Numbered from the stretch's first letter, positions 4,183 to 48,098 are shown. The stretch is DNA of 64,000 bases from Candidatus Nitrospinota bacterium M3_3B_026 (GCA_051418015.1 JBPRGF010000014.1:58101-122100), one strand, 5' to 3'. Numbers and translations: made by a program. The notes: generated from the sequence alone by a model not told the origin.

Positions 4183-4188
4183 CCCGTG

Positions 4189-7572: not shown

Positions 7573-7629
7573 TGTTTAAGTGTAATGTTTTCCGCCTGTT
7601 CCGAATGCTTAAAAAAAGGACAAAAAACC

Positions 7630-7658
7630 TTGACGCGCGCCGGTATTTGTAATTAAAA
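7630..7658 (+). promoter_or_regulatory. Candidate sigma-70 promoter (TTGACG-N17-TTAAAA) overlapping palindrome GTAATTaaAATTAC
   Basis: -35-like TTGACG at 7630-7635, then an AT-rich -10-like element 17 nt downstream. This is the only AT-rich stretch in the 200-nt leader of the 7774 gene. The inverted repeat GTAATT/AATTAC may be an operator. Confidence 0.25.
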
Positions 7659-7773
7659 TTACGCCGATTCACGCTCAATAGGAGACGGGTTCCGGCGCTT
7701 GTCGCGGCGGGGCTCTTGGCGTGGGTCGAAAAAGCCTTAAGTTATCTGTTGTTTGAGTAAGGAGGAGCATCGT

Positions 7774-8988: not shown

Positions 8989-9013
8989 GCTCCCGCCTTT
9001 CAAGGCAGATACT

Positions 9014-9048
9014 CCCCCGTCCTCTTTAAAGAGGGCGGGGGTTTTTTT
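9014..9048 (+). terminator. Rho-independent terminator after the Cyc2-like gene
   Basis: Hairpin CCCCCGTCCTC/GAGGGCGGGGG followed by TTTTTTT (9042-9048). Confidence 0.7.
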
Positions 9049-9074
9049 ATGCTTGCCGCGGCGGGCTCCTTTCC

Positions 9075-9270
9075 CGCGGTGTCCATTCTGAGCGCCAGCG
9101 AAGAATCCCGCAACGGACGTGAAACGGCGAGATCCTTCGGCCTCAGGATGACAATGGGGCGGCTCAGGGTGGATAAAATGGGAGCGCTCAGGGTGACAAA
9201 GTGAGGGGAGGTTCAGGGTGACACTATCTCTTCACAGTGTCATGCTGAACGAAGTGAAGCATCTCGCCCC
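9075..9270. repeat. Dispersed intergenic inverted-repeat element family, locus A (core GTCATnCTGAG / CTCAGGnTGAC)
   Basis: 'gtccattctgagcgccagcgaagaatcccgc', three spaced copies of '(c)tcaggGtgaca(a)', and 'gtcatgctgaacgaagtgaagcatctcgc'. The latter is near-identical to 18241-18269; related copies sit at 60327-60357 and 62730-62790. Confidence 0.6.
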
Positions 9271-9304
9271 GGGACAACAACGAAAACAGCTTCTCAGCAG
9301 CCCG

Positions 9305-11266: not shown

Positions 11267-11333
11267 AATTTATAATCTTAGCAAAATATCTCTGCTATAA
11301 GGTTGAAATCAGGTAAATAACGTTTTTTGCCGT

Positions 11334-12059
11334 ATGACGCGGGAATCGCCGAGCCTTTTCGAAAACGCCCTTGTCCAGACCCTGGCCGAGCGCATCGGGC
11401 CGTCTTTCAACGTGACTCTGACCGACAACAGGAGAACCCTTATCTCCATAAGGGAAAAGAATGGCGCGACACACGTCAGGCTCTCCAGGATATTCGCCCT
11501 TGCCGACGAGGCGACGACCCGCGGCCTGGTCTTGTACATAAAAGGGAGGGCAAGACGCCTGCCGAGGAGCGTCACGGCCTTCGTCAGGACCCAGCCTCCG
11601 CCTCCCCGGGCCGTCCGTAAAGCCGTTGAAAAACTGGCCCCGAAAGGCAAAGTCCGCGACCTTCGGGACGTAGCCGGGAGGATCGACAAACGCTATTTCG
11701 GCGGCTGCGCCGGGAGGGTGAGGATCACCTGGGGCAGGCCCGCGCCGGTTATGAAAAAACGCCGCGCCCAGAAAAGCGTCCGGCTGGGGTCATACGACTG
11801 GGAGTTCGACCTGATAACCGTGAATCCCGTCCTGGACTCTGCGTCTGTCCCCGTCGAGGTGTTGGAACTGGTCGTGTATCACGAGATGCTCCACAAAAAA
11901 CTCGGCAGGAGGGTGGGGCGCGACGGCAGACTTCTGGCGCACACGCCGCTGTTCCGCGCGCTGGAGCGCAAATACGAGCGTTACGAGCAGGCCGTGGATT
12001 GGGAAAGGAAGCATATATGGAAGGCGCTGCGGCCGGCTCGCGGCGGGCGAAGGCCGTAG
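11334..12059 (+). CDS. DUF45/YgjP-like HExxH zinc metallohydrolase
   Basis: 'VVYHEMLHKK' HExxH motif followed by H..LF....Y......W..H spacing typical of YgjP/M48-like proteins. 241 aa. Confidence 0.55.
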   Translation: MTRESPSLFENALVQTLAERIGPSFNVTLTDNRRTLISIREKNGATHVRLSRIFALADEATTRGLVLYIKGRARRLPRSVTAFVRTQPPPPRAVRKAVEKLAPKGKVRDLRDVAGRIDKRYFGGCAGRVRITWGRPAPVMKKRRAQKSVRLGSYDWEFDLITVNPVLDSASVPVEVLELVVYHEMLHKKLGRRVGRDGRLLAHTPLFRALERKYERYEQAVDWERKHIWKALRPARGGRRP

Positions 12060-12736
12060 ACACGGGCTCTGCCCGGCGGGACGGGTTCGACATCTCAAAA
12101 GCCCTGGGGATCATCCGCCGGGAGGTGAAACGGTGGAAGACCCCGGTGGTGACCCGTTACAGCCGTGAGGGCGAAAGACCGGCCTTCCGCGTCCTCATAA
12201 GCTGCCTTCTCTCCCTGCGGACAAGGGACGAGCAGACCGCCGCGGCCGCCCGCCGCCTCTTCGCCGCCGCCGCCGCCCCCCGCCGGATCATGGCCCTGCC
12301 GGAGAAGAGGATCGAGGAGCTTATTTACCCCGTCGGGTTCTACAGGAACAAGGCCAGGGTCATAAAGGAGGTCTGCCGCCGGCTCGTGGCCGACTACGGT
12401 GGCGCCGTCCCGGACGAGATAGACGAGCTTTTGAAGCTGAAGGGAGTGGGGCGCAAGACGGCCAACCTCGTTGTGACCATGGGCTTCGGCAAGCCGGGGA
12501 TATGCGTGGACACCCACGTTCACCGGATAGTAAACATCTGGGGATACGTCAGGACCGCCGCGCCTGACAAGACCGAGCTTGCCCTGCGGGAAAAACTTCC
12601 CCGCCGCCACTGGATAGAGATAAACGACCTGCTCGTGACCTATGGCCAGAACGTGTGCAAGCCCGTCTCCCCGCTGTGCTCCAAGTGCGCCATACACAGC
12701 ATGTGCCCCAGGGCAGGCGTTACCCGCAGCCGCTAG
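12017..12736 (+). CDS. nth: Endonuclease III (DNA glycosylase/AP lyase, [4Fe-4S])
   Basis: HhH-GPD motif 'LKGVGRKTANLVV..FGKPGICVDTHVHRI' and C-terminal 'CKPVSPLCSKCAIHSMC' FCL cluster. Start uncertain (ATG 12017 chosen); the ORF overlaps the upstream gene. Confidence 0.82.
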   Translation: MEGAAAGSRRAKAVDTGSARRDGFDISKALGIIRREVKRWKTPVVTRYSREGERPAFRVLISCLLSLRTRDEQTAAAARRLFAAAAAPRRIMALPEKRIEELIYPVGFYRNKARVIKEVCRRLVADYGGAVPDEIDELLKLKGVGRKTANLVVTMGFGKPGICVDTHVHRIVNIWGYVRTAAPDKTELALREKLPRRHWIEINDLLVTYGQNVCKPVSPLCSKCAIHSMCPRAGVTRSR

Positions 12737-12791
12737 GCGAAAGCCTCCGTGTGTTAGAATTTTATAATGGCGAAGCTTCGCGAAAAAAAAG

Positions 12792-13550
12792 ATGCCGGAA
12801 CGTGAGCCCGCCCAGATCCTGAGCCTGTCGGTGATGGGGCGCGGGGGGGAGGAGAAAGCGTTCCCGCTGGATCGTGACAGCCTGACCATCGGCAGGGAGT
12901 CCGGCTGCGACATCATCATCCCTGACCTTTCCATATCCAAAAAACACGCGAGGGTTTTCATCGAGAACGGCAGGACGATGATCGCCGACGGCGTGGACGG
13001 CAAGCCAAGCGTCAACGGTGTTTACGTGAACGACGCTCGCATAAGCGGCCCCGTGGCGCTCAAGGAAGGCGACGTGGTGAAGATGGGCGTGCTGAAATTC
13101 ATGGCGAAGCTGAGCCCGGACCTTAAGCGCCAGGCGACGCTGGAGCAGGTGACCTCCGCGGAGAACCTGAGGGCGTTCCTGGAGTACGGCGAGGCCATGA
13201 AGGCCAGGGAGGCTGACATCCTGGCGCGGATATCCTCCCTTGACCTGGGGGCCGGAGAGCTGACGGAGATTTTCGACGCCGCGCTGGACAGGGCGATGGA
13301 GGAAAGCCGCCTCAAAAAGGTCGGGTTCATCTCCGCCCTGAAACACAAAGCGCTGAAAGAGACGAAAAGCGGCGGAGGCCGGAAGGCCGGACAGTGGAGC
13401 GAAGACGCCGCCGGGGACCCGGACGCCACCGTTCTAGACCCCGCCTTCGCCGCGTCCGCCGGGGCCGGGAAGCGGAGAGGGCTTCTGATCGTCGCGGCGG
13501 CGCTCCTGGGGGCTTTCATTGCCGCCGCCCTTGTTCTGATGTATTTATGA
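12792..13550 (+). CDS. FHA-domain protein with C-terminal membrane anchor
   Basis: N-terminal FHA ('LTIGRESGCDIIIPDLSISKKHARVFIENGRTMIADGVDGKPSVNGVYVND..LKEGDVVKMG'), central acidic region, C-terminal TM helix 'LLIVAAALLGAFIAAALVLMYL'. Confidence 0.78.
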   Translation: MPEREPAQILSLSVMGRGGEEKAFPLDRDSLTIGRESGCDIIIPDLSISKKHARVFIENGRTMIADGVDGKPSVNGVYVNDARISGPVALKEGDVVKMGVLKFMAKLSPDLKRQATLEQVTSAENLRAFLEYGEAMKAREADILARISSLDLGAGELTEIFDAALDRAMEESRLKKVGFISALKHKALKETKSGGGRKAGQWSEDAAGDPDATVLDPAFAASAGAGKRRGLLIVAAALLGAFIAAALVLMYL

Positions 13551-13564
13551 GAAAATAGGAAACC

Positions 13565-14590
13565 ATGGCGGAAAACAGGCTGGACAGGATTTTCGAGGAC
13601 GAAAGCTACCGGGCCCTCAAGGGGGAGGAGAAGAGGGTGTACGGCTTCCTCTCCACCGTGGTGGAGAAAAAGAAGATGCTCCTGGAGCTGGAGAAAAGCT
13701 ACCGCGCGAGGCTCAAGGAGATAGCCGACGAGGTGGCGGGCCGCGAGGGGGCCCTGAACCTTTCGGCCCAGGAGGCGGACGCCGCCGCCGATGGCCTGAA
13801 AAAGACCTTGAAAGCCGCGGATGAGAAGATAAAATCCATCCGCCGTGAGCTGGACTTCGCGGAGCTGCGCCTCTCGGCGGGGGAGTTTGGACGGGAGGAG
13901 CTGGACAGAGAAAGAGACAGGCTTCAGCGGGAGCTCTCGAAGGCGGAGGCGGAAAGATCGTGGATCCAGGACAAGATCGCCCTTGTCAAAAAACTGAAGT
14001 CCGGCTCCAGGAGGACGAAACCGCGAGAGGAACAGAAAGAGCGCAAGACCGACGGGGCGAACGCATCCTCCCCCCGCCGCCCCGCGGAGGCGGAGAAAGA
14101 CAATACGCAAACCACCACCTCCCCCATCATGAGCCTGAAAGGCTTTGGCGGCGCCAGGAGCCCCGACGCGACGATCATCTCCGAGATGACGCTGCCGATC
14201 AAACCCACGGGGGGGAATTTCGACGCCGAAGAAACCATGGCCATCCCGGCGGACCTCGTGGGATCGGATCCGGACAGGCTCCTGGAGGCGTCCCTGCACA
14301 TTCATAACGAGGATGGATGGGAGCGTTTCCCCCTGAAAAAGGAGGATGTGAGCATAGGCAACATCCGCGAGCCGGAAAACGACATCGCCCTTTACGACGC
14401 CCAGGTGTCGAGAAGACACGCGAAGATAATCTACGACGAGCCGACCGACTGCTGGTTTCTCGTGGACCTCGGCAGCCGCAACGGCTCCTTCCTGAACAAC
14501 AAGTTCATAGAGTCGAACGACCCGCAACTTCTGAAAGACAAGGACAGGATAACCCTGGGCGAGACCAGCATAGTCATACACCTGCCCTGA
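13565..14590 (+). CDS. Coiled-coil protein with C-terminal FHA domain
   Basis: N-terminal ~150 aa of E/K/R-rich coiled coil, then C-terminal FHA ('VSIGNIREPENDIALYDAQVSRRHAKIIYD..WFLVDLGSRNGSFLNNKFI..LKDKDRITLGE'). 14-nt gap from the preceding FHA gene. Confidence 0.78.
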   Translation: MAENRLDRIFEDESYRALKGEEKRVYGFLSTVVEKKKMLLELEKSYRARLKEIADEVAGREGALNLSAQEADAAADGLKKTLKAADEKIKSIRRELDFAELRLSAGEFGREELDRERDRLQRELSKAEAERSWIQDKIALVKKLKSGSRRTKPREEQKERKTDGANASSPRRPAEAEKDNTQTTTSPIMSLKGFGGARSPDATIISEMTLPIKPTGGNFDAEETMAIPADLVGSDPDRLLEASLHIHNEDGWERFPLKKEDVSIGNIREPENDIALYDAQVSRRHAKIIYDEPTDCWFLVDLGSRNGSFLNNKFIESNDPQLLKDKDRITLGETSIVIHLP

Positions 14591-14682
14591 CGGCTGCCCC
14601 GGCTCCGGCCTTGACTTTCGCGCCGCGGCGTCTGATAAAGGACAAATGAGCTTGAATTTCCTGATGATTCGCAAGAGAGCCG

Positions 14683-15603
14683 ATGGCTAAGGACTACTAC
14701 GACATACTCGGCGTGGACAGGAACGCCACGGTGGAGCAGATCAAGAAGGCGTACAAAAATCTCGCCAAGAGATACCACCCGGACAGGAACCCGGACGACA
14801 AGCAGGCCGAGGAGAAGTTCAAGGAGATAAGCGAGGCCTACGCCGTCCTGAGCGACAAGGAAAAACGCGCCCAGTACGACAGGTTCGGCCACGCCAAGTT
14901 CCGCCAGGCCTACAGCCAGGAGGACATCTTCAGCGGTGTGAACCCGGACGACATATTCCGCGAGTTCGGATTCGGGGGCGATATCCTCAGCCAGATGTTC
15001 GGCTTCAGGACCGCGGGCGGGCCGCGTGTGCGCTTTGAGCAGGGAGGCTTCGGGTTCGAGCCTTTCGGCGCGGGACGGGGGCCGATGGCGGGGCGGGACT
15101 ACGAGACGAGCCTCACCGTCTCCTTCGATGAGGCGATGAAAGGCGCCGAGCGGGCGCTGACCCTGAACACGGAGTCGGGCCCGCGCCACGTGACGGTGAG
15201 GATACCCCGGGGGATATCGACGGGCAAGAAACTCCGCCTGAAGGGGGAGGGCGGGCCCGGCCCCGGCGGCGGGCCTCCGGGCGATCTTTACATAAAAGCG
15301 ACGGTGGCTGAAGACCCGGTGTTCAAAAGAGACGGGGACGACCTGGTCGTGGAGGCGCCGGTCGCCTATTCCACCCTCATCCTTGGCGGGACGGCCTCCG
15401 TCCCCACGTTGGAGGGGGAAAAGACCATAAGGATACCTCCGGCGTCTGACCCGTCGAAAAGGATCAGGATAAAGGGAGCCGGGGCGCCGAAACTGAAAGG
15501 AGGCCGGGGCGACCTTTACGTCAAGCTGAAGGTGACCGTGCCGCCGGAGCCCACCGAAAAGCAGAAGAGCCTGGCCTCGGAGCTTTTGAAGACGGGGCTT
15601 TGA
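14683..15603 (+). CDS. cbpA: DnaJ-class J-protein lacking the zinc-finger (CbpA-like)
   Basis: J-domain '[30 protein letters not shown]', Gly/Phe-rich linker, DnaJ C-terminal substrate-binding domains. No CxxCxGxG repeats. Confidence 0.8.
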
Positions 15604-15758
15604 ACACCGGGGAAAAGGGCGGCGAGACTCGGCGCCGAGCCTCGCCGGGAGCGCATTGGGCGCGCCTGGCTATACCTTTCGCCGGGGCGCGTTTATAATC
15701 TTCTGGAGGATGCTAACCCGCCGACTTTCCCGCGGCGGGCCTTCGTGTTGAGCTGACC

Positions 15759-17246
15759 TTGATGAAACAAGACCGAAGAATAGAGCTTTTAAAGGACATC
15801 GCCGGCCTCATCGGCTCCGTGGCCGACCTGGACAACCTGCTCGCGCTGCTGGTCATCACCGCCACGCGCGTCCTGGAGGTCCGCGCCTCGTCGTTGTTGC
15901 TGCTGGACAAGAAGACCGGCCGCCTTTACTTCCACACCGCCCTCGGCGACAAGAAAGAGAACGTGAAGGAGTTCGAGCTGAAAAAGGGCGAGGGGATAGC
16001 CGGGTGGGTCTTCGAGCGCGGCGAGCCTCTGCTTGTCGAGAACGTGAAGGAAGACCCCCGCTGGGCCTCCGAGATCGCGGAGAAAGTGGGCTTCAACACG
16101 GGGTCCATAGCCTGCGCGCCCCTGAAGGTGGAAGGGGAGGTGATAGGCGTCCTGGAGGTCATAGACAGAGAGGACGGCGCTCCCCTGCGGCCGGAGGACC
16201 TGAAACAGCTGCAGGCATTCTCCGATCTGGCCGCCGCGACGCTCCTGAGCGCCAGGGCGTACAAGAACGTCCAGAGGGAGGTCAGCGAGCTGCGCCGGGA
16301 GCTCGGCTCGAGACGGCGCATAATCGGAAACTCCCCCTCCGTCAGGAAGGCCCTGGAGGACTGTTCCAAGGTGGCCGACTCCAAGGCCACGACGCTCATC
16401 ACCGGGGAGTCCGGCACGGGCAAGGAGCTTTTCGCCCGGCTCATCCACGATCTGTCGCCGCGGAGCGGCGGCCCCATGACGGTTGTCAACTGCGGCGCGC
16501 TGCCGGAGACCCTGCTGGAGCGGGAGCTTTTCGGCCACGAGAAGGGCGCCTTCACGGGGGCCGATTCCATGAAGCCCGGCCTTTTCGAGTCCGCCGACAC
16601 GGGTACCATATTCCTCGATGAGATAGCGGAGACGTCCCCCGCCATGCAGGTCAAGCTGCTGCGGGTCCTGCAGGAGGGAGCGTTTTACAGGGTCGGCGGC
16701 TCCTCGCCGATCCGCGTGGACGTCAGGGTCATCGCGGCCACGAACAAAGACCTTGAGAAGATGGTGAAGGAGAAGACGTTCCGCGAGGATCTTTTTTACA
16801 GGCTCAACGTCTTCAGGCTGCGCCTGCCGCCGCTGCGGGACAGGAGGGACGACATCCCCGCCCTCGCGGAAAAGTTCCTGGCCCGGACGGCGCGGGATAT
16901 GAGCCGCCCTGTCAGGGGTTTTTCGGACGAGGCGATGAACGCCCTCATGAGATACTCCTGGCCCGGCAACATCCGCCAACTGGAGAACGCCGTGGAGCGC
17001 GCCGTGATAATGTCCGAGTCGGAGTTGATCGAGCTCGACGACCTGCCTGGGGAGGTGCGGGAGACCGGCGGCGGGGACATTCACGTGGGCATGAGCCTGA
17101 AAGACGCCCAGGACGGCTTCAAGAGGGCGTTTATAGCGCAATCGCTGGCGTTCCTCGGCGGCAACAAGACGAAAACGGCTAAGATGCTGGGCATACAGCG
17201 CACCTACCTGAGCAGGCTCATAAGGGAGCTTGGCATAAACTCTTAA
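15759..17246 (+). CDS. Sigma-54-dependent transcriptional activator with N-terminal GAF sensor (Fis-type HTH)
   Basis: GAF region, then AAA+ 'ITGESGTGKELFAR', the GAFTGA loop ('EKGAFTGA'), 'RVDVRVIAATN', and C-terminal Fis-like HTH 'KTAKMLGIQRTYLSRLIRE'. Confidence 0.9.
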   Translation: MMKQDRRIELLKDIAGLIGSVADLDNLLALLVITATRVLEVRASSLLLLDKKTGRLYFHTALGDKKENVKEFELKKGEGIAGWVFERGEPLLVENVKEDPRWASEIAEKVGFNTGSIACAPLKVEGEVIGVLEVIDREDGAPLRPEDLKQLQAFSDLAAATLLSARAYKNVQREVSELRRELGSRRRIIGNSPSVRKALEDCSKVADSKATTLITGESGTGKELFARLIHDLSPRSGGPMTVVNCGALPETLLERELFGHEKGAFTGADSMKPGLFESADTGTIFLDEIAETSPAMQVKLLRVLQEGAFYRVGGSSPIRVDVRVIAATNKDLEKMVKEKTFREDLFYRLNVFRLRLPPLRDRRDDIPALAEKFLARTARDMSRPVRGFSDEAMNALMRYSWPGNIRQLENAVERAVIMSESELIELDDLPGEVRETGGGDIHVGMSLKDAQDGFKRAFIAQSLAFLGGNKTKTAKMLGIQRTYLSRLIRELGINS

Positions 17247-36294: not shown

Positions 36295-37296
36295 TCAGGA
36301 CACGATGGCGCCGCCGCAGGTGAAACCCGCCCCGGCTGCGCACGCGTGGCAATGATCAGACGTGGCTATTGGCGAGCCGGGCTCCGGCGGGCCGGGCATC
36401 CTGCTTACATGGGTCTTTTCTCCACCGAGAGGGATGGAGGCGGCTATATGGAAGTCGCAGTCGTAAAGGAAGCCGTCCCACGCCACGGAGACCTGCGTCC
36501 TGCACATCAGACCCTCCACGGCCATGGGGTTGAAGCTGTCCGCCAGCTTGTTTTCGTACCGCTCCAGGTTGCCCGTGCTCTCAAGCCAGCTTCTGAACCT
36601 CCCCAGGGGAACGTTGGCGAAGCCGTACAGGTTGTTGAACGTCACTCCCCATTTTCCGGCCAACTCCGCCTTGAACCTTTTTTCCATCTCGCCCTGCGAG
36701 GACGCAGGCAGGAAGGCGCCGGACGGGTTTGACGCGAAATTGATCTCGAGGCCGGTACCCTCCTTTCCGTATCCAAGCGAGTTCAACGCGCGCAGCGTCC
36801 TGATGCTTTTGTCGAAGACTCCCGCGCCGCGTTGCGCCTCCACCTGCTGCCTGTTGAGCGAGGGGAGGGAGGCGAACAAAACCACCTTTTTTTCCCCGAG
36901 CAGCTCCATCAGCTCGTCCTTGCTCTCGCCGGATATGGCCGTGAGGTTCGAGCGTAGTATTATTCTCGGCGCGAACGCGGAAAGCTCCTCTATGAGCCTC
37001 GGCAGGCCTGGGTTCATCTCCGGCGCGCCGCCGGTTATGTCCACGACACCAAAACGCCCCCGCCTCGCGTAGTCTATAACCTCGGTTATCGTTTCGCCGT
37101 CCATGAGCTCCCCCCGCGCGGGTCCCGCCTCCAGGTGGCAGTGGCGGCACTCCTGGTTGCACAGCAGCCCCACGTTCACCTGCAGAGTCGTTGTCTTCGC
37201 CCGGCTGAGCCTTACGCCGTTGTCCGCGAGAGCCCGGGAAAACGAGTCCCCGCCCCCCTTCGTCCCGGCCGTCGTTCCGTCCATGCCCTCCTCCAT
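36295..37296 (-). CDS. arsS: Radical SAM/Cys-rich-domain protein (arsenosugar-biosynthesis ArsS-like)
   Basis: 'VGLLCNQECRHCH' (CxxxCxxC), and the C-terminal Cys-rich 'CHACAAGAGFTCGG' typical of the ArsS family (here Cys, not Sec). Start at MEEGMDG within the longer ORF. Confidence 0.65.
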   Translation of the reverse strand: MEEGMDGTTAGTKGGGDSFSRALADNGVRLSRAKTTTLQVNVGLLCNQECRHCHLEAGPARGELMDGETITEVIDYARRGRFGVVDITGGAPEMNPGLPRLIEELSAFAPRIILRSNLTAISGESKDELMELLGEKKVVLFASLPSLNRQQVEAQRGAGVFDKSIRTLRALNSLGYGKEGTGLEINFASNPSGAFLPASSQGEMEKRFKAELAGKWGVTFNNLYGFANVPLGRFRSWLESTGNLERYENKLADSFNPMAVEGLMCRTQVSVAWDGFLYDCDFHIAASIPLGGEKTHVSRMPGPPEPGSPIATSDHCHACAAGAGFTCGGAIVS

Positions 37297-37301
37297 GGAA
37301 T

Positions 37302-37634
37302 CTACATAGAAAGTTTTTCCGCCAGGTCGCGCATCTGCACGCCGTGGACAAGGGACGCGCCGCCGCGGATGGCCGCCGCCACGTGGACGGCTTCCGTCAT
37401 CTCCGCCATGTTGGAGCCCTTCTCCAGGCAGGACTGCGTGTAGGCGTCGATGCAGTAGGGGCACTGCACCGCGTGGGCCACCGCCAGGGCGATCAGGGCT
37501 TTTTCCCTGCCCGTCAGCTCTCCCTCGGCGAAAACGGAGTTGTAATAATCGAAAAACTTCCTGGCCAGGTCCGGCGCGTCCTTCCCTATTTCCTTGAACC
37601 GTGGAAGGTCCTTCGGGTCGTAATATGTCTCCAT
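37302..37634 (-). CDS. AhpD-like carboxymuconolactone-decarboxylase-family protein (ArsS-partner peroxidase-like)
   Basis: AhpD core 'ALAVAHAVQCPYCIDAYT' (CxxC). 110 aa. 5 nt upstream of arsS on the same strand. Confidence 0.65.
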   Translation of the reverse strand: METYYDPKDLPRFKEIGKDAPDLARKFFDYYNSVFAEGELTGREKALIALAVAHAVQCPYCIDAYTQSCLEKGSNMAEMTEAVHVAAAIRGGASLVHGVQMRDLAEKLSM

Positions 37635-37850: not shown

Positions 37851-39542
37851 ATGCTTCGATCCGGTCTTTTCATCCTGCAAAAAGCACGCTTCCGGTTGGC
37901 GAGCAACTCCGTTCTCCGGCCTGGCCGGGGAAGCGCCGCAAGGAGGGCCGTCCTGGGGGCGCTCGCCGCGCTCTTTGTCCTGGGTGACTGGTGGTTCTTC
38001 AGGCGGATACTCGTCTATTTCAACAGCCTGCCGATGGACGTGGGGGAGATACTCGTCATACAGCTTCTGAACCTTCTGTGCCTCACGCTCTTTTCGATGC
38101 TGGTCTTCTCCAACGTCATCGCCGCGATATCGACGCTTTACATGTCGCGGGACCTTGAGCTGCTGCTTTCCGCGCCCCTGCGCCCCGTCGAGGTCTTCGT
38201 CTCCAAGTTCATCCTGACGCTGATAAACTCCTCGTGGATGCCGGTACTTTTCGGCATGCCGATCTTCGTGGCCTACGGCCAGTCCGGCGGCGCCTCGTGG
38301 CTCTACTATGCCTTGCTGCCCGCCGCTGTCCTTCCGTTCCTTGTGGCGCCTTCGGGGCTCGGTGTGCTGTTCACGATGGTCCTCACCCGTTTCTTCCCGG
38401 CGAGAAGGGCCTACCAGGTCCTGACGTTTGTGGGCGTGCTTTTCATGGGCGGGCTGGTGATGTACTTCAGGTTCCTGAGGCCGGAGAGGTTCGTCGGCAA
38501 GGATGTCCCCGACGAGGCGATAATCGGATTCGTGGAGAGCCTCAAGGCGCCGGACTACCCATGGCTGCCTTCCAGCATGATGGCCTCGGCCCTGCAGGCG
38601 GGGGCGCTGGGCGACTGGGAGATGTTCTGGGGCGGGCTGGGCAAGCTGTGGGCCGTGGCGGCCGCGGCCTCGGCTGTGGCAGTCGTTGCGGCGTGGAGGT
38701 TCTACTACGCCGGATGGACGGCCGCCGCGGGGGGCAGGAGCGTGGTTATGCCCAAAAAGGAGCGGATGATGTACCGCGCTGCGCGAAAGATGATGGCCCC
38801 TCTCGCGCCGGAGTCGAGGGCGTTGCTGATGAAGGACATGAAGCTCTTCTGGAGGGACACGGGACAATGGTCCCAGCTTTTCATACTCGGCGCGCTGGTG
38901 GTGGTCTACATATTCAACATCAGGAACCTGCCCCTGGACACCGTTTACCTGAAAAATGTCGTCTCGGTGATGAACATCGGCCTGGCGGGCGTGGTGCTGG
39001 CGGCGGTCGCGGCAAGATTCGTCTTCGCCGCGATAAGCGTGGAGGGAAAAGGGTTCTGGGTCATCCACTCCGCGCCGCTCGATCCCCGGAGGCTTCTGTG
39101 GGCCAAGTTTTCGCTTTACATTCTTCCTCTGATAATCCTGGCCGAGGCGCTGGTCGTTGTCTCCAACCTGTTCCTGGGCGTCGACGGGTTTGTGATGGCC
39201 GCTTCCGCGGCGGCCATAGCGGCGCTGACGGCGGGGCTTTCGGGCCTGGGGACCGGGATGGGCGCCATGTATCCCAAGTTTGACTTCGAGAACGTGGCCG
39301 AGGTGGGGACGACAACCGGCGCGATCATGTACATGATAATATCCCTCGCTTACGTGGGCGCGTCGGTGAGCCTCGTGGCGGGGCCCGTCAGGGCTCATCT
39401 GCTCCACGTCTTCCTGGGCGCGCCCGTGAGCCAGGCGGACATCTGGGGCCCCTTCGCCGCGCTTTTGATCCTCACGGCGGTGTTCGTCTACGCGCCCATG
39501 AGGATGGGAGCGGACGCGCTGGCGAGAATGGAGACCTTCTAG
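37851..39542 (+). CDS. Uncharacterized polytopic membrane protein (10 or more TM, ABC-2/exporter-permease-like)
   Basis: 563 aa, predominantly hydrophobic helices. No soluble catalytic motif recognised. Start uncertain. Confidence 0.65.
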   Translation: MLRSGLFILQKARFRLASNSVLRPGRGSAARRAVLGALAALFVLGDWWFFRRILVYFNSLPMDVGEILVIQLLNLLCLTLFSMLVFSNVIAAISTLYMSRDLELLLSAPLRPVEVFVSKFILTLINSSWMPVLFGMPIFVAYGQSGGASWLYYALLPAAVLPFLVAPSGLGVLFTMVLTRFFPARRAYQVLTFVGVLFMGGLVMYFRFLRPERFVGKDVPDEAIIGFVESLKAPDYPWLPSSMMASALQAGALGDWEMFWGGLGKLWAVAAAASAVAVVAAWRFYYAGWTAAAGGRSVVMPKKERMMYRAARKMMAPLAPESRALLMKDMKLFWRDTGQWSQLFILGALVVVYIFNIRNLPLDTVYLKNVVSVMNIGLAGVVLAAVAARFVFAAISVEGKGFWVIHSAPLDPRRLLWAKFSLYILPLIILAEALVVVSNLFLGVDGFVMAASAAAIAALTAGLSGLGTGMGAMYPKFDFENVAEVGTTTGAIMYMIISLAYVGASVSLVAGPVRAHLLHVFLGAPVSQADIWGPFAALLILTAVFVYAPMRMGADALARMETF

Positions 39543-41514: not shown

Positions 41515-42489
41515 TCAGAGGCGGCCCCAGTCGAACACGATCCGCTCCGACTCGTACCACACGCCCGGCTTGTCGGGGTCCGGGTTTTCCCGCGTTATCT
41601 CCGAGGTCAAAAGCTCCGGCGGCACCCGGGCCATCTGCAGGTAGAGGTCCGCTTCCTCCTCCTTGTACCCCAGGTAGCTTTCCACCTGTTCGATGACATC
41701 CTTTCTCGACTCCGCGTTGACGTAGAGAGTGGAGTAGAACCCCCTCGGCTTCTCCACCTCGTCGAGACCCGGTTTGTAGCCCCGGATATCGACCTTCCAG
41801 CAGGTCATGCCGATGGGGACGCCGTCCTCGTCAATCTCCTCGTCCTCCTCCTCGTCGAGATAGAGGTCGTACCGGTCCGCCAAGTCCTCGAAAGCGGTCA
41901 GATAATCGTCGCCGTTCTCTTCGTCCAGCGGGAGCGGCTCATGGTAGTGGGGCTCGTCGAGGAACAGGCCCAGCTCCATGACGAAGGGTATTCCCATGCG
42001 CTCCAGGGCTCTTTCCATCATGTCAGGGTCGTGGTGGTACACCTGGATCGTCTTGTGCTCGTCGAGGAAAACCTCGGCGGGGCTTCCGTGCGAGAACGCG
42101 CCTATCCCGAAAAAACCGTCGTCCAGGACGACGTCGCGCCAGTTTTTAATCCACTCCACGATCTCCCTGCGGTTTATCAGCGAGTCGCTTATGTATGTGT
42201 CATGATCGCGGTAGTAGTCGTCCGAATGGATCTTGACCACGAGGTGGACCATTTCCGGGAGTCGGCCGAGCAGGGACAGGAACGTCGCCATGAGCCGCTC
42301 GTGGGGCACGGCGATATGGTAGTGAAAACAGCCCTCCTCGCGCAGATACTTGGAGTCGTAGCCTGCCTTCTGACAGTACTCTCCCTCGGGGTAGGCTCCG
42401 AACGAGTACGTGAAGCCGTCTTCCCTGATCCTGTCGGTCAGTTTCCTTCGGGCCGGAAGCGCGCTCCGGCGGGGGTCTTTTTCGCTCAT
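41515..42489 (-). CDS. Hypothetical acidic protein (unknown function)
   Basis: 324-aa ORF with GC3-rich codon usage and Asp/Glu/Tyr-rich low-complexity segments. No recognised domain. Confidence 0.45.
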   Translation of the reverse strand: MSEKDPRRSALPARRKLTDRIREDGFTYSFGAYPEGEYCQKAGYDSKYLREEGCFHYHIAVPHERLMATFLSLLGRLPEMVHLVVKIHSDDYYRDHDTYISDSLINRREIVEWIKNWRDVVLDDGFFGIGAFSHGSPAEVFLDEHKTIQVYHHDPDMMERALERMGIPFVMELGLFLDEPHYHEPLPLDEENGDDYLTAFEDLADRYDLYLDEEEDEEIDEDGVPIGMTCWKVDIRGYKPGLDEVEKPRGFYSTLYVNAESRKDVIEQVESYLGYKEEEADLYLQMARVPPELLTSEITRENPDPDKPGVWYESERIVFDWGRL

Positions 42490-42748: not shown

Positions 42749-44098
42749 ATGAGATTTTCTTTCAGGAGCGTGGTCACGGCCTGGCTTGGAGTGGCCGTCG
42801 CCTCGATGGCCTTCATGGGGGTGTACGCTTTCATGATAGTCCTGAGCCGCGCGCCCGGCTTCAACCTCCTTTTCACGGAGCAGGACTTTTTCCACACCGC
42901 GCTTGTGACGCACGTGGTTCTGTCCGTCGTGATATGGTTCCAGGCGTTCATACTCTTTCTCATCCATTACACGACGTCCGGCAGGCCGCCGGGGACTCTG
43001 GACGGGCTTTCCGCCCTCGGCGCTCTGGCTGGCGTGGCGCTTATCGTTGTGACGCCGCTGACCGGCCAGGCCTACCCGATGCTCAACAACTACGTGCCGG
43101 TGCTCAACAGGCCCATGTACATCACCGGGTTGGCCCTCTTTTTCGGGTTCGCGTCCCTGGGGGTGGTTTTGCGCGCCCCGGCGCTGGCGGGGAAGATCAT
43201 GGAGAGGGCGCGGGGCGGGGAAGTTCCGCTCGCCGTGACGGCGCCATTGGCGGGGGCGGGGCTCTCCATCGTCATGGGGGTGGCGCTGGTCGTCCTTGCG
43301 CTGATCCGTCTTTCCGGCGGTGCCGGGGAGGGGCTTGCGCCGACGGTCTATTTCGAGATCCTCTTCTGGGGAGGGGGGCATGTGCTGCAGTTCGCGAACA
43401 CTTTCGGGATGATGGCCGTCTGGTCCCTGCTTGCCCTCAGGCTTGGCGGCGGCGCGCTGGCCGATGACAGGGTCGCCCTCGCCGCCGTTATCATAATGGC
43501 CGCCTTCGTCGTCTCGGCCCCGGTGGACTATTTCACGAAACCGATAGAGTCCTTCGAGTCCCGGGCGTTTTTCACCACCATGAAGGGATGGGGGATAGCC
43601 CTTGGGCCCATAGTCCTTGGGCTTTCCGCGGCGTTGAGGTGGAAGAGGCTGGGGGACGACTTTCTGGCCCGGCGCGGGCTGGCGCTGTCGATGGCGCTTT
43701 TCGGTATGGGGGGGCTGATAGCCCTCACCATACAGGGCAGCGATACAAGGATACCGGCCCATTACCACGGCGTCATCGGGGGGGTGACCATAGGCTACAT
43801 GACCCTGGGGCTGCTTGCCATGAGGGACAACGGATGGCTCGCGGCGGGACGGAGGTGGCTCAAGATACAGGTCAACTCCTACGGGGTCGGCCAGGCGCTT
43901 TTCGTGGTGGGCATGTTCGTCGGCGGCCTTTTGGGCCTTGCCAGGAAAACCTACGGGCAGGCCCAGGTGCTGGACACTTTCCAGAAGGCGCTGAGCATGG
44001 CCCTTATGGGCATAGGCGGAGTGCTGGCCATAGCCGCCGGGGGCCTTTTCGTGGTCATCATGATAATGTCGCTTGCGCGGGGAAGGAGGGAGGCGTGA
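42749..44098 (+). CDS. His-motif polytopic membrane protein, paralog A (heme-copper-oxidase-like motifs but not canonical; NnrS-like is an alternative)
   Basis: 449 aa, about 12 hydrophobic helices. Conserved His at H49/H55 ('FFHTALVTHVV'), 'FWGGGH211VLQF' and 'AH338YH340GV'. Stop overlaps the GTG of the downstream cytochrome c (GTGA). Confidence 0.7.
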   Translation: MRFSFRSVVTAWLGVAVASMAFMGVYAFMIVLSRAPGFNLLFTEQDFFHTALVTHVVLSVVIWFQAFILFLIHYTTSGRPPGTLDGLSALGALAGVALIVVTPLTGQAYPMLNNYVPVLNRPMYITGLALFFGFASLGVVLRAPALAGKIMERARGGEVPLAVTAPLAGAGLSIVMGVALVVLALIRLSGGAGEGLAPTVYFEILFWGGGHVLQFANTFGMMAVWSLLALRLGGGALADDRVALAAVIIMAAFVVSAPVDYFTKPIESFESRAFFTTMKGWGIALGPIVLGLSAALRWKRLGDDFLARRGLALSMALFGMGGLIALTIQGSDTRIPAHYHGVIGGVTIGYMTLGLLAMRDNGWLAAGRRWLKIQVNSYGVGQALFVVGMFVGGLLGLARKTYGQAQVLDTFQKALSMALMGIGGVLAIAAGGLFVVIMIMSLARGRREA

Positions 44099-44418
44099 AG
44101 GGCTTTTTTCTTTGGCCTGCCGTGACCTGCGCTTTTTTCCTGGCGGCGGGCTGCCGGACGGCGGACAGACCGGCCGCTTACCAGAAATGCGTTAAATGCC
44201 ACGGGGAACCGGGGGGCGGCGGGACGATGACGGCGCCGGACCTCGCCGAGACGGAGTACGACCTAGGGCAGTTCAAAAAACAGTTGCTGAGCGGTTCGGA
44301 TTGGGAAGGGAAACCGCCCGGGAAATGGAAATACCGGTGGAAAAAGATGCCTCCCCAGGTGGGTCTTTCCGAAAAACAGATCAAAGCCCTTTTCGAGTAC
44401 ATAAAATCCGCTAATTAG
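44095..44418 (+). CDS. Monoheme c-type cytochrome lipoprotein (paralog 1)
   Basis: GGAGG RBS plus GTG. Lipobox 'FLAAGC'. 'CVKCHG' heme site. Shared downstream 'KKMPPQ..LSEKQIKALFEYI' with the two paralogs. Confidence 0.8.
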   Translation: MKGFFLWPAVTCAFFLAAGCRTADRPAAYQKCVKCHGEPGGGGTMTAPDLAETEYDLGQFKKQLLSGSDWEGKPPGKWKYRWKKMPPQVGLSEKQIKALFEYIKSAN

Positions 44419-44611
44419 ACGGCGTTCCGCATCAGACTGGGTTTAATTTCTGTACCCGGTATTTTCTCTGGAATCGGTATTTACACGCGAGGGTTGTTTG
44501 TAATACTATTAGGCGGCTTTTTTCGCGGCTCCGCTTTCGCGGGCCCGCGAAAGAGGGGGGTAAGTCAAGGATGGGAACCGCAATGTTCAACAAAACGCTA
44601 GGAGGTCAATT

Positions 44612-44944
44612 ATGATGAGAGCGGTGATTCTCTCCCTGGTTTCCCTCGCCCTGCTGGCCGCCCCTTCTCTTGCGGGTGACGCGCCGAAGGCTTTCAGGAA
44701 GTGCAAGACCTGCCACGGTCCGATCGGAGCGGGCAAGGGCAAGCTTGGGCCCGACCTTATCAAGGACCGCTTGAATTTCGAGCAGTTCACCAAGCAGATC
44801 AAGAACGGCTCCAAGTGGGAAGGCAAGCCGCCCAAGATGGAAGGCTTCGAGAAGAAGAAGATGCCTCCCCAGAAAAAGCTTTCCGACGAGGACATCAAGG
44901 CTTTGTTTGACTATATCCAGGCCGCCCAGGCAGCCGCCAAGTAA
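44612..44944 (+). CDS. Monoheme c-type cytochrome (paralog 2, Sec signal)
   Basis: AGGAGG RBS. Signal peptide. 'CKTCHGP'. 'KKMPPQKKLSDEDIKALFDYI'. Confidence 0.85.
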   Translation: MMRAVILSLVSLALLAAPSLAGDAPKAFRKCKTCHGPIGAGKGKLGPDLIKDRLNFEQFTKQIKNGSKWEGKPPKMEGFEKKKMPPQKKLSDEDIKALFDYIQAAQAAAK

Positions 44945-44960
44945 CGACTCTCTTGGGAAA

Positions 44961-44997
44961 CCGCCGGATGGCCGCGAAGGCTCCGGCGGTTTTTTTT
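44961..44997 (+). terminator. Rho-independent terminator
   Basis: CCGCCGGA..TCCGGCGG hairpin plus T8. Confidence 0.72.
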
Positions 44998-45051
44998 GTC
45001 CACGCCCGCAATACACGGGCCCGGACCGGCAAAATTTTTCGGAAGTGACGA

Positions 45052-45080
45052 TTGCATGCCGGATTCGTTTATAATATGAT
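45052..45080 (+). promoter_or_regulatory. Candidate sigma-70 promoter TTGCAT-N17-TATGAT, followed by inverted repeat CCGGTGA-N8-TCACCGG
   Basis: Spacing and hexamers fit the consensus. The perfect 7-bp inverted repeat at 45094-45114 lies between the promoter and the RBS of cytochrome c paralog 3. Confidence 0.35.
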
Positions 45081-45181
45081 ATGTTCGCTTTTCCGGTGAG
45101 TTATTTTCACCGGATTCACCGCAGAGGGTATATCTGAGTAATATCCCGGAATTGTTCAACAAATAGTAGGAGGGGTAAGTT

Positions 45182-45502
45182 ATGATGAGAGCGATGTCCG
45201 TTTTTTTTATTTCCCTGGCCCTGCTGGCTGGCCCCGCCCTGGCCGGTGGCGCGCCGAAAGCTTTCAAGAAATGCAAGACCTGCCACGGCCCACTGGGAAA
45301 AAACAAGGGCAAGATAGGGCCTGACCTGGCCACGACCAAATACACCTTCGAGCAGTTCACCAACCAGGTGAAGAACGGCTCCAAGTGGGACGGCAAGCCG
45401 GCCAAGAGGGAAGGCTTCGAGAAGAAGAAGATGCCTCCCCAGAAGAAACTTTCCGACGAGGACATCAAGACTCTGTACGACTACGTGCAGTCCGCCAAGT
45501 AA
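45182..45502 (+). CDS. Monoheme c-type cytochrome (paralog 3)
   Basis: AGGAGG RBS. Signal peptide. 'CKTCHGP'. 'KKMPPQKKLSDEDIKTLYDYV'. About 70% identical to paralog 2. Confidence 0.85.
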   Translation: MMRAMSVFFISLALLAGPALAGGAPKAFKKCKTCHGPLGKNKGKIGPDLATTKYTFEQFTNQVKNGSKWDGKPAKREGFEKKKMPPQKKLSDEDIKTLYDYVQSAK

Positions 45503-45519
45503 CCACGGCTCAAGGAAAA

Positions 45520-45559
45520 CCGCCGGACGCCTCCGAAAGGGCGTTCCGGCGGTTTTTTT
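45520..45559 (+). terminator. Rho-independent terminator (near-duplicate of 44961..44997)
   Basis: CCGCCGGACGC..GCGTTCCGGCGG hairpin plus T7. Confidence 0.72.
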
Positions 45560-46805
45560 ATGACCTTGAGCCCCTGAGATACGACACCATCTGCCAGGCC
45601 GCGCCCGCCGCCGCGGCTGACGAGGCGAAAAGAAGCGCCAGCGTCCCGGCCGGGTGATCGGCCCACAAGCCGTCCACGGACACCGTTTTCCTCAAAAGCC
45701 GCGTTCCGGCCAGCCACAGGAAGGAGAGAGCCATCAAAAGCCCCCCAAGCCCGAAAAGCGCCGCGGGGACGGTTGTTTTCGCCTTCCTTCCCGTGAGTAG
45801 TCCGAGAAAGCTGGCCGACACGGCGATCAACAGGCCGTGGTAATGCCCCGTGAGGGCCATGGACTCCCGGTCGTCGAGGCTGGGCAGGAGGCCGCCCGCC
45901 ACAAACGAGACCATGGCGACCGCGACCAGCGCCAAGGCGCCAGACGGCCTGCCCCTCCCGGCAAAGATGACCACCGCGGCCAGGAAGGATGTTGTCCCCA
46001 GCCCGCCGCCGAGGACCAGCGTCCATGTCATCTTCAGCGTCTGCGACACGGGGTCCTCGAAGATGTAGATCAACGGGGTCGCCATGGCGGCGCAGGCCGC
46101 GGCGGCGTAAAGGAGGGCCAGGGCGGTTCTCTTGAGCCCTTCATCCCTGAAGCCTGAGAGCATGATCCACGCGCAGGTCATGAGCGTCACGTGGGTGAAC
46201 TGGATGGAGTGGCCGGGGCCGTAGGCGACCGTCCCCAGGGAACTGGCTCCGGCGAGGCTCCCCGGCGTGGCCAGCCATGCCAGCAGGGCGTTCACCGCGG
46301 TGGCCCAGGCGGCGGCGGAGGCGGCCATCATCCCCGCCAGGATGATGGGCGGAGCCGCTCCGTCCGGATCTTTCCCCAGAGCCGCCCATGCCCGAAAAGG
46401 GGTCAGCGAGGCGGCCAGCCACGCGGCGTAGACGGCGGCCATCCCGGCGGTAAACAAGGGTGACCCGAAGGCGGGCGCGTAGTCCACGGGCGCCGGCCTG
46501 TCCCACCCCGCCACCGTCCCCGCCAGGATCAGGACGCCGCCGCCCGCCGCCACGGGGCCCGTCCAGCGATATGATTTTACCCGTGTCCCGGCGATCCGCC
46601 CCGCCATGTTCCAGATGGTTATCTCGGCGGCCGGGATCCATACGTGAGACATCAGGGCGAGGTGGGCCGTGAGGGTGGAGTAAAACCAGTCCCTCGCCCC
46701 GAAGATGAGCGGATACAGGGAGGCGAGGCCGAAAAGGCCCGCCGCCGCCAGCCCTGAAAGCGCCGCGCCGAGGGCGGGTTTCGGGCCGTCTGGTTCATAG
46801 CGCAT
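45558..46805 (-). CDS. His-motif polytopic membrane protein, paralog B (convergent)
   Basis: 415 aa. Shares the HX5H ('TAHLALMSH'), 'GPGH199SIQF' and 'GH321YH323GL' motifs and helix pattern with paralog A. Confidence 0.7.
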   Translation of the reverse strand: MRYEPDGPKPALGAALSGLAAAGLFGLASLYPLIFGARDWFYSTLTAHLALMSHVWIPAAEITIWNMAGRIAGTRVKSYRWTGPVAAGGGVLILAGTVAGWDRPAPVDYAPAFGSPLFTAGMAAVYAAWLAASLTPFRAWAALGKDPDGAAPPIILAGMMAASAAAWATAVNALLAWLATPGSLAGASSLGTVAYGPGHSIQFTHVTLMTCAWIMLSGFRDEGLKRTALALLYAAAACAAMATPLIYIFEDPVSQTLKMTWTLVLGGGLGTTSFLAAVVIFAGRGRPSGALALVAVAMVSFVAGGLLPSLDDRESMALTGHYHGLLIAVSASFLGLLTGRKAKTTVPAALFGLGGLLMALSFLWLAGTRLLRKTVSVDGLWADHPAGTLALLFASSAAAAGAAWQMVSYLRGSRS

Positions 46806-46916
46806 GGGGCATTATACAATCCCGCGGCGCCATCCCCCCTTCTCCCGGGCGCCGGTTTCAAGTAAAATCACTCGGAGTCAGCTAACCTCTTCGTTTTGAT
46901 ATTAGCGCGCGGGACA

Positions 46917-48098
46917 ATGAAAACCATCGCCAGCCTGTTGAGCATGGAAATCGCGGGGATAACCATCTACCAGTTCATCCTGAGCTTTGCCATACTGTTG
47001 GCCACCCTTACCCTGCGCAGGGTGATAACCAGGGGGATCATGCGTTGGCTGGAGTCCCGCGCCGAGCGCACGAAGACGAAGTGGGACGAGACGCTGATCT
47101 CCTCCGTCCGTCCTCCCATCGAGGCGATGATCCTGGCTTACGGCATCCTGCTGGCCATAAAGGTGCTTCCGCAGCCCGAGGAGCCTGTGAACATAAAACG
47201 CTTCGTGGAGATGGCCGGCCACGTGCTCATCCTGTTCATCGGGGCGTGGCTGCTTCTGCGGATGGTCACCGTCGTGGACATCGTCCTAAAGAGAAAAGCC
47301 GCCGACCCGAGACACTGGCTGGAGTACGGCATGGTGCCGCTGATCAGCAAATCCATAAGGATAATGATCGCCATAGTCGCCGGGATAGTGATAGCCCAGA
47401 ACATGGGCTATTCCGTGAGCGGCCTCGTCGCCTCCCTGGGCCTGGGCGGCGCGGCGCTGGCGCTCGCCTCCAAGGACACGCTTTCTAACCTGTTCGGTTC
47501 CATGATGATCCTCGTGGACAAGCCCTTCAAGGTGGGGGACTGGATAGTGGGCGACGGATTCGAGGGGATAGTCGAGGAGGTCGGATTCCGCTCCACCAGG
47601 ATCAGGACGTTCGAGAAGACGGTGCAGAACATCCCAAACAACATCCTTGCGAACATGACGGTGGAGAACATCGACAGGAGAAGGGACGCCGGGCTCAACG
47701 TCCGCAGGATCAGCATGACCGTTGGTGTGACCTACGCCACCACCGCCGACCAGATGGAAGAGGCGGTGAAAGAAATAAAGGAGATATTAAAGACCGACGA
47801 GGGCGTAAGCGGCGACGCGCCATGCCTGGTCTCCTTCACGGACTTCGGCGACTCGTCGCTGAACATTTTCGTCTACTACTTCGCCAACAAGGCCGACTGG
47901 GCCTACTATCTGAAAGTGCGGCAGAGGGTGAACCTGAAGATCATGAGGAAACTGAAGGAGCTGGGGCTTTCCGTGGCGTTCCCCTCCAGGTCGATATACC
48001 TCGAGGCCCTGCCTGGCGGCATGGAGCGGGTTCACATACCCTTGCCCCCGCCGTACACCGCGCCGGCGGACAAGCCGCCCCCGCCGACGAAGGCTTGA
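46917..48098 (+). CDS. Mechanosensitive channel (MscS family), second copy
   Basis: TM helices, then 'LVDKPFKVGDWIV..GFEGIVEEVGFRSTRIRT'. ATG 46917 chosen; TTG 46896 is an alternative. Confidence 0.82.
   Translation: MKTIASLLSMEIAGITIYQFILSFAILLATLTLRRVITRGIMRWLESRAERTKTKWDETLISSVRPPIEAMILAYGILLAIKVLPQPEEPVNIKRFVEMAGHVLILFIGAWLLLRMVTVVDIVLKRKAADPRHWLEYGMVPLISKSIRIMIAIVAGIVIAQNMGYSVSGLVASLGLGGAALALASKDTLSNLFGSMMILVDKPFKVGDWIVGDGFEGIVEEVGFRSTRIRTFEKTVQNIPNNILANMTVENIDRRRDAGLNVRRISMTVGVTYATTADQMEEAVKEIKEILKTDEGVSGDAPCLVSFTDFGDSSLNIFVYYFANKADWAYYLKVRQRVNLKIMRKLKELGLSVAFPSRSIYLEALPGGMERVHIPLPPPYTAPADKPPPPTKA

Follow-up and report, generated by a model that had tools for sequence, protein, structure and literature searches.

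A 64,000-nt stretch of the genome of Candidatus Nitrospinota bacterium M3_3B_026 (GCA_051418015.1 JBPRGF010000014.1:58101-122100; this whole stretch is called the window below) encodes a membrane protein, A, which is followed by three monoheme cytochromes c (c1, c2 and c3) and by a convergent second membrane protein, B. A and B were shown to be divergent representatives of the heme-copper oxidoreductase (HCO) superfamily with the fold of its catalytic subunit, and A belongs to a large, strongly conserved but uncharacterised HCO branch that has no CuB site. In our judgement there is an even chance that A is a redox-active, heme-only and non-pumping HCO paralogue which is fed by cytochrome c. 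A first-pass annotation, made from the sequence, had described the locus as a candidate redox module; the five genes were found with the strands and sizes, the GTGA overlap and the convergent 415-aa paralogue it had given. Its observations hold with one correction of a motif (HX5H, see below), and its interpretation is partly supported.

Fold and heme ligands of A and B

Protein A matches the Pfam family COX1 over its full length (residues 8-421, profile positions 2-431 out of 436), scoring 41.1 bits where the cutoff is 34.8; B has no Pfam match. Neither protein matched an NCBIfam family at E<=1, ccoN, NorB and CtaD included, and the PDB, searched with the sequence of A and with a profile of 22 family members, gave nothing relevant. 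Since the PDB searches found nothing, homology was established by the Pfam match, by profile-profile alignment (hhalign) and by comparison of folds. An alignment of 22 A-family sequences matched end to end, over 440 columns, one of 36 subunit I sequences of eNOR-like nitric oxide reductases (NOR), which come from the gene neighbourhoods of other genomes (probability 100%, E 5.2e-56). A and B had been taken for paralogues and this is indeed the case, B being very divergent: their identity is 23% in BLASTP (E 3e-5), and the B clade was aligned with the A family over 403 columns (99.9% probability, E 1.9e-32) and also with eNOR-like subunit I (E 2.5e-10). AlphaFold2 models of both proteins (pLDDT 89-90, pTM 0.91-0.92) have the 12-helix core fold of subunit I, and in Foldseek they retrieved oxidase subunit I chains only, with TM-scores of about 0.7; transporters stayed below 0.2. 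The likeness of A and B to the oxidases is homology, remote yet solid. A confident match to a non-redox transporter, which the first-pass annotation had named as refuting its reading, was not obtained.

Ligands were mapped by alignment with the eNOR-like sequences and with bovine COX1 (1occ_A), and conservation was counted in 199 non-redundant family members (equivalent residues are given in Table 1). By alignment, both proteins have two His for a low-spin heme (H55 and H340 in A, H48 and H323 in B) and a proximal His for a high-spin heme (H338 and H321, respectively). H55, H211, Q214, H338, Y339, H340, R399 and K400 are 100% conserved in the 199 sequences. The motifs G-H-x-x-Q-F and H-Y-H-G, in which the helix VI active-site His and the helix X pair of heme ligands had rightly been recognised, are present in A and B and invariant in these 199 members; the counterparts in B are H48, G198-H199-x-x-Q202-F203, P244, I246-Y247, H321-Y-H323 and R372-K373. 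HX5H, read before as a third common motif, had to be given up: H55 of A aligns with H48 of B, the two pairs are out of register, and H49 of A is variable (K/R/H/Y/Q).

The helix VII His-His pair is missing in both A and B, as had been noted, and of the three His of a CuB/FeB site the one in helix VI (A H211, B H199) is alone present. Position 261 is Tyr in ~90% of the members and His in just four of 199. At position 260 the Nitrospinota-type clade has polar residues (E/Y/Q/D) and the rest of the family aliphatic ones. F215, which stands four residues after the helix VI His where HCOs of the A and B families have the cross-link Tyr, is an invariant Phe; Y261 sits at a CuB-His position and not at the Tyr position of the C family, and the cross-linked Tyr of the O2-reducing HCOs of the A, B and C families is absent. 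With a variable residue and Tyr in place of the helix VII His-His and Phe in place of the cross-link Tyr, no three-His CuB/FeB site is left, and A and B are neither canonical oxidases nor NORs. The alignments showed that a pocket of His, Gln and Tyr (His211/Gln214/Tyr261 in A) remains above the putative high-spin heme. In the helix VIII region, which in eNOR contains conserved proton-channel residues, no conserved polar residues were found in the A family. A is therefore mis-annotated; its NCBI name, a cbb3-type oxidase, misleads, as the protein lacks the copper ligands.

Besides the ligands, a glutamate that precedes the helix VI His by eight residues, E203 (43355-43357), is found in 194 of 196 A-family sequences and is Asp in the other two; it is not invariant in B, aligns with Arg in eNOR-like proteins and is possibly a contact to a metal or a partner on the periplasmic side. 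The B clade has two traits of its own that are absent in the A family, H54 in helix II, six residues after the heme ligand (46635-46682, B 42-57), and D-P-V-x-Q-T after the helix VII Tyr (46050-46079, B 243-252).

Cytochromes c and gene order of the locus

The gene of c1 is translationally coupled to that of A: its GTG start overlaps the TGA stop of A as GTGA and follows a GGAGG-rich ribosome-binding site (RBS), with GGAAGGAGGGAGG just upstream. c1, c2 and c3 each combine an export signal (judged by reading the sequence), one CxxCH and a distal Met with a match to Pfam Cytochrom_C/Cytochrome_CBB3 above the gathering scores (30-45 bits against cutoffs of 21-27), and are class I monoheme cytochromes c; CVKCH in c1 and CKTCH in c2 and c3 are as first read. 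The Met of KKMP is the probable sixth heme ligand of c1. With the NCBIfam family ccoP the three proteins gave 16-20 bits against a cutoff of 180, their matches being confined to generic class I cytochrome c domains, and c1 is not of the FixO/CcoO type. The signal peptide of c1 ends in the lipobox-like LAAGC from which a lipoprotein had been proposed, but the Cys is missing in orthologues from other genomes, and a lipoprotein anchor was ruled out as a conserved trait of c1.

c2 and c3 were shown to be duplicated soluble paralogues, each with its own RBS and terminator. They share 73% of their residues (77/106; about 70% had been estimated), and c1 is 43-44% identical to either. The tandem duplication is 570 nt long and spans RBS, coding sequence and terminator (44604-45000 and 45174-45560; 80-89% nucleotide identity). 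Three related genomes (L006, L093 and L094; loci from other genomes are numbered with L) have two cytochromes c, the c1 orthologue and one more, and the third copy in the window is therefore recent. A simple terminator scan missed both hairpins since their loops are longer than 8 nt; they were confirmed by RNA folding, in line with the AGGAGG sites and hairpins reported before. The hairpin 3' of c3 (z -5.2, U7) folds on the minus strand behind B too, and no terminator was found 3' of c1.

The order A, two cytochromes c, convergent B and MscS was also found in L006, L093 and L094, whose A proteins are 69, 51 and 46% identical to that of the window; the wider synteny in these genomes includes TilS and a conserved 324-aa protein. 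A divergent pair of a B-type gene and a gene for an MscS-type channel is present in every locus with a B-type gene (window, L006, L007, L090, L091, L093 and L094), with a spacer of 90-145 bp where measured, and in L090 and L091 this pair occurs without A or a cytochrome c. MscS is probably outside the redox module. B had been counted as a part of it, and synteny within one lineage does tie B to the cytochromes; but a B-like gene can also stand where A and cytochrome c are missing, and membership of B is not established from these gene orders. B most likely duplicates the device that A represents, in a more derived form.

Upstream of A, a gene next to tilS encodes the 324-aa protein, which gave no match in a Pfam search and is strongly conserved in L094, at a syntenic position (E 4.5e-123). 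The radical SAM/DUF3641 and PF16949 genes farther upstream have, as far as seen, no apparent relation to the HCO-like locus.

Table 1 Features of the locus, in positions of the window, with residues equivalent to those of eNOR-like subunit I and bovine COX1.
Feature	Position	Strand	Description
Radical SAM/DUF3641 protein	36295-37464	-	
PF16949 'putative ABC' membrane protein	37851-39542	+	
324-aa protein	41515-42489	-	adjoins tilS
Protein A	42749-44098	+	449 aa; NCBI name cbb3-type oxidase; Pfam COX1 match
A helix II, HTALVTHVVLSVVIWF	42893-42940	+	H55, equivalent of a low-spin heme ligand (eNOR-like H71, helix II); H49 variable
A helix VI, EILFWGGGHVLQF	43355-43393	+	H211 (bovine H240, CuB/FeB His); Q214; F215 (position of bovine Y244, cross-link Tyr replaced by Phe); E203
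A end of helix VII, APVDYFTKP	43517-43543	+	D260/Y261 in place of the two CuB His (eNOR-like H282-H283)
A helix X, PAHYHG	43754-43771	+	H338 and H340, equivalents of the high-spin and the second low-spin heme ligand (bovine H376/H378)
A R399-K400-T	43943-43951	+	equivalent of the basic pair binding heme propionate (bovine R438-R439)
c1	44095-44418	+	107-aa cytochrome c; CVKCH at 44188-44202
c2	44612-44944	+	110-aa cytochrome c; Sec signal; CKTCH; own AGGAGG RBS
Intrinsic terminator 3' of c2	44955-45003	+	hairpin of -28.3 kcal/mol, then U8
c3	45182-45502	+	106-aa cytochrome c; Sec-type signal; CKTCH; AGGAGG before ATG
Bidirectional terminator hairpin between c3 and B	45513-45560	both	-32.7 kcal/mol on +, -28.8 kcal/mol on -
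Protein B	45558-46805	-	415 aa; MGK7344838.1 'hypothetical protein'; convergent on c3
MscS-type mechanosensitive channel	46896-48098	+	divergent from B

Distribution and gene neighbourhoods of the A family

The A family comprises more than 1,900 clusters at 90% identity, and relatives of A were found in at least 597 species genomes. The hosts include Nitrospinota, Nitrospirota, Deltaproteobacteria-type lineages, SAR324, one Rickettsiales metagenome-assembled genome (MAG) and many Gammaproteobacteria and Betaproteobacteria (Thiodiazotropha, Sedimenticola, Thiothrix, Rhodocyclaceae, Burkholderiales). The isolated novelty suggested before is thus not what was found; most members are encoded without a cytochrome c, next to ctaA/ctaB and to operons for eNOR or aa3. 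Members of the B type are few: an exhaustive profile search of 1.84 billion representatives gave nine clusters below 1e-30, beyond which the score drops from 184 to 90 bits, where the A family starts. The exhaustive search was needed for all nine, a word-indexed search having retrieved four B relatives.

Gene neighbourhoods were analysed in 80 species-level loci, 40 of them with full flanks. ctaA or ctaB is present within 10 kb in 58 of the 80 (34 of the 40 with full flanks) and directly adjacent in 32; taken separately, a heme o synthase lies within 10 kb in 44 loci and the heme a synthase CtaA in 34. The heme o synthase neighbours, which are UbiA proteins, exceed the equivalog cutoff of TIGR01473. 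Within the same distance, an eNOR-like COX1, recognised by GHSSQQ with HH present and by the Gln signature used for eNOR (PMC8756737), was found in 33 loci and an A-type COX1 in ten. A gene for a cytochrome b-4Fe4S fusion protein lies within 900 bp in 26 loci.

In each of the 33 loci with an eNOR-like COX1, A matches the second COX1-like gene of the eNOR operon with ~185-230 bits, and A belongs to the same sequence family as this gene. An example is L001, with the order COX2, eNOR-I, ctaB, sco1, cytochrome b-2Fe2S-FAD-NAD fusion, 173-aa protein, cytochrome b-4Fe4S fusion, HCO-like gene and CtaA-like gene. In this locus (3942-8008) and in about 26-40 others, the cytochrome b-2Fe2S-FAD-NAD protein, the cytochrome b-4Fe4S/FlpD-like protein and the 173-aa protein, which has a single helix, are encoded directly upstream of the HCO-like gene; the two fusion proteins and the 173-aa protein are a possible NAD(P)H-linked electron path across the membrane.

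A second setting is the aa3 cluster. The gammaproteobacterial L050 has ctaA, the HCO-like gene and ctaB beside surf1-coxC-cox11-coxA (8779-17229), and in L032, L033, L036, L049, L061 and L086 the HCO-like gene likewise has ctaA, ctaB or both as neighbours, with a complete aa3 cluster (surf1, coxC, cox11, coxA) alongside.

The arrangement of the window, a cytochrome c gene directly downstream of the A homologue, was found in nine genomes (window, L004, L006, L008, L088, L089, L092, L093 and L094), in five of these loci with an overlap of stop and start codons, and the flanking genes are unrelated. Because the pairing recurs in nine genomes with different flanks, A and c1 are a conserved functional pair, and the co-occurrence with cytochromes c that the first-pass annotation had proposed to look for does exist. 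In L092 the pair of A-type and cytochrome c genes directly follows SCO1-COX2-COX1(A-type)-CtaA-CtaB. In L088 (1915-9646), from a Nitrospinota genome, the pair lies directly downstream of heme-biosynthesis genes, which encode a siroheme-type NAD-binding protein and a CcsA-like protein and include hemA and hemC.

Proposed role and comparison with known systems

For A, the best-supported reading is the one first suggested, a two-heme membrane protein with dedicated periplasmic cytochromes c. From its sequence, A would bind one low-spin heme and one high-spin heme at a depth of one-third from the periplasmic face, like all HCOs. The high-spin heme is probably farnesylated, heme O or A, because the family is persistently encoded beside heme o and heme a synthases. 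Electrons would flow from c2/c3 via c1 to the low-spin and then to the high-spin heme: by analogy to NorC and CcoO, c1 would be fed by the soluble c2 and c3, dock at the periplasmic side and trade electrons with the low-spin heme, in a topology that can be likened to NorC-NorB or CcoO-CcoN. A small substrate (NO, O2, peroxide and heme O are candidates) may be turned over at the metal-free His/Tyr/Gln pocket. Proton pumping is not expected, because no K-channel residue conserved in eNOR is retained. In other lineages the same protein would be wired to the membrane-bound cytochrome b-FeS fusion proteins and not to a cytochrome c. In both settings the A family is encoded within or beside clusters of heme-A-dependent oxidases or NORs and would therefore be an auxiliary redox component of that respiratory branch.

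Several points weigh against this assignment. Most members of the A family have no cytochrome c or CuA partner, and even a close homologue of A, in L009, stands alone without a cytochrome c. The 64-kb window contains no ctaA, ctaB or HCO operon. The AlphaFold2 model of B was built on an alignment dominated by A-family sequences. The position of H211 and Y261 relative to the heme is predicted from alignment, and the alignment with bovine COX1 puts Y261-F262 on H290-H291, one residue off the register of the eNOR-like alignment. His and Tyr over a heme are typical of heme-carrier proteins as well. Finally, the sole published label for a gene of the family type is 'scaffold protein'.

The alternative that we take most seriously is clearly less probable than a redox enzyme: A could be a non-catalytic biogenesis factor, an HCO look-alike that holds heme O/A or hands it over, as scaffold, chaperone or buffer, for eNOR or aa3 oxidases, with the pocket as a transient heme site. 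The family is indeed embedded in biogenesis clusters, as seen in L050 and the six similar loci, in the eNOR operons with ctaB and sco1 and in L092, and the loss of CuB ligands and proton-channel residues would fit a loss of catalysis. The label 'scaffold protein' comes from a preprint on Ferrigenium straubiae, in which an 'eNOR scaffold protein of unknown function' was detected in the proteome, with transcripts ~3- to 25-fold below those of eNOR I under denitrifying conditions (bioRxiv 10.64898/2026.01.22.701106). This protein (IMG 2878407321) is cox-subunit-I-like (K02274), the second such product of the eNOR operon, and encoded there with heme o synthase, sco1 and two cytochrome b-FeS genes, the gene set that holds most A-family members, and by its operon position it very probably is of the same family as A; it has no cytochrome c partner, and 'scaffold' is a label and not a result. 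A passive scaffold, however, needs no electron carrier, yet the family is coupled to a cytochrome c in one clade and encoded directly after a cytochrome b-FeS gene in the other; because both clades have such a dedicated carrier, a redox-active role is preferred over that of a passive scaffold or carrier. Moreover, every ligand of the full path from low-spin to high-spin heme is invariant, and the vicinity of ctaA/ctaB is equally expected of an enzyme that itself uses heme O/A. The neighbourhoods do not discriminate between the use of heme A and help in making or inserting it.

It is less likely again, and in our view doubtful, that A is a heme-only enzyme on an oxidase scaffold that acts on or for heme O/A and not on O2 or NO, for example in a cytochrome-c- or ferredoxin-linked step of heme A(s) formation or delivery. 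In that doubtful case A and c1, with c2/c3, would be the form that is linked to cytochrome c, and B another, specialised copy. A related reading, to which we give a slightly smaller chance still, is a heme-modifying enzyme whose high-spin site takes heme O as substrate and helps to oxidise it to heme A(s), as an alternative or partner to CtaA, with electrons delivered via cytochrome c in the Nitrospinota type and via the cytochrome b-FeS/FAD-NAD proteins in the eNOR type. The genes adjoin those of heme o synthase and CtaA, and the cytochrome b-2Fe2S-FAD-NAD fusion of the eNOR operons resembles a pair of ferredoxin and ferredoxin reductase, which mitochondrial Cox15 needs. How heme A for eNOR is made under anoxic conditions has been posed as an unresolved question (bioRxiv 10.64898/2026.01.22.701106), and a role in the formation or delivery of heme A(s), if true, would explain the maturation of heme-A-dependent eNOR at very low oxygen. 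This evidence is purely circumstantial, though; the conserved pocket residues are over the iron, away from the C8 methyl at which oxidation takes place, a normal CtaA is also encoded at many loci, and ctaB is missing from the window.

A genuine oxidase of the cbb3 type, as the NCBI name of A has it, is very improbable. The COX1 match, the name and the small cytochrome c gene that follows like ccoO after ccoN would fit, but two of the three active-site His and the cross-link Tyr are absent, which already refutes it; there is neither an NCBIfam match to ccoN, NorB or CtaD nor a PDB sequence match even with the family profile, c1 is of another type than FixO/CcoO, the window contains no COX2, and the active-site His are fully conserved in all HCO families but gNOR, in which one His is changed to Asp (Murali et al. 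2024, PMC11214002). The cbb3 label matters since it inflates the aerobic capacity inferred for MAGs such as M3_3B_026. Just as remote is an NnrS-like heme-copper protein, as once considered, or a non-redox 12-helix transporter, for which the 12 transmembrane helices and the lack of a Pfam match of B could speak: neither A nor B matches NnrS (PF05940, E<=1), CydA or a transporter family, the Foldseek hits are oxidases, and profile comparison ties B to A and to eNOR-like subunit I.

Known families were also considered as direct matches and rejected. The NOR families (cNOR, qNOR, eNOR, sNOR, bNOR, gNOR, nNOR) do not fit since the FeB ligands are missing and no COX2-like open reading frame is present in the window. 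Murali et al. describe eNOR, bNOR, sNOR, gNOR, nNOR, NOD and an N2O-reductase-like family; by their description all of these stand near cNOR, qNOR or the B family and keep the His sites (PMC11214002). The unusual cbb3 oxidase known from Nitrospina gracilis (PMC3578206) is a different protein, a fusion that has all three His. In the literature no description of the missing ligands, the cytochrome-c-coupled clade or the B type was found. The constant neighbours of the family raise two options, an unrecognised heme-only catalysis in the NO/O2 respiration branch or a missing maturation factor of heme A enzymes.

For the cytochrome-c-fed redox protein that we prefer, the closest known relative is subunit I of eNOR and other B-family HCOs (Rhodothermus marinus eNOR, Thermus ba3). 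A shares with them the 12-helix fold and, at near-identical spacing, the His of both hemes and the helix VI His; it further shares the R-x propionate pair, D-P after helix VII and a conserved Q in helix XI, and the family is often encoded in the same operon as eNOR, with heme o synthase and Sco1. A itself is not encoded in such an operon, the 64-kb window having no eNOR, COX2 or sco1. Unlike eNOR, the A family has x-Tyr in place of the helix VII His-His and no CuA subunit II of its own, and the K-channel residues are not conserved; its members are ~21% identical to eNOR subunit I and shorter (~450 versus ~565 aa).

Like NorBC of cNOR and CcoNO of cbb3, the locus has a minimal ~450-aa, 12-helix subunit encoded beside a monoheme cytochrome c. 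But c1 has a class I Cytochrome_CBB3/Cytochrom_C domain and not a NorC/FixO domain, and A lacks the FeB/CuB His triad, the NOR glutamates, the cross-linked Tyr and any sequence match to NorB/CcoN. gNOR and NOD are precedents for proteins of the HCO fold with changed CuB/FeB ligands; both are treated as keeping a catalytic site, gNOR having one His changed to Asp and NOD being related to qNOR, whereas the A family keeps one of the three His. HCOs are defined by a heme and a three-His metal site, and here the ligands of both hemes are kept with a single one of these His in a family of this breadth.

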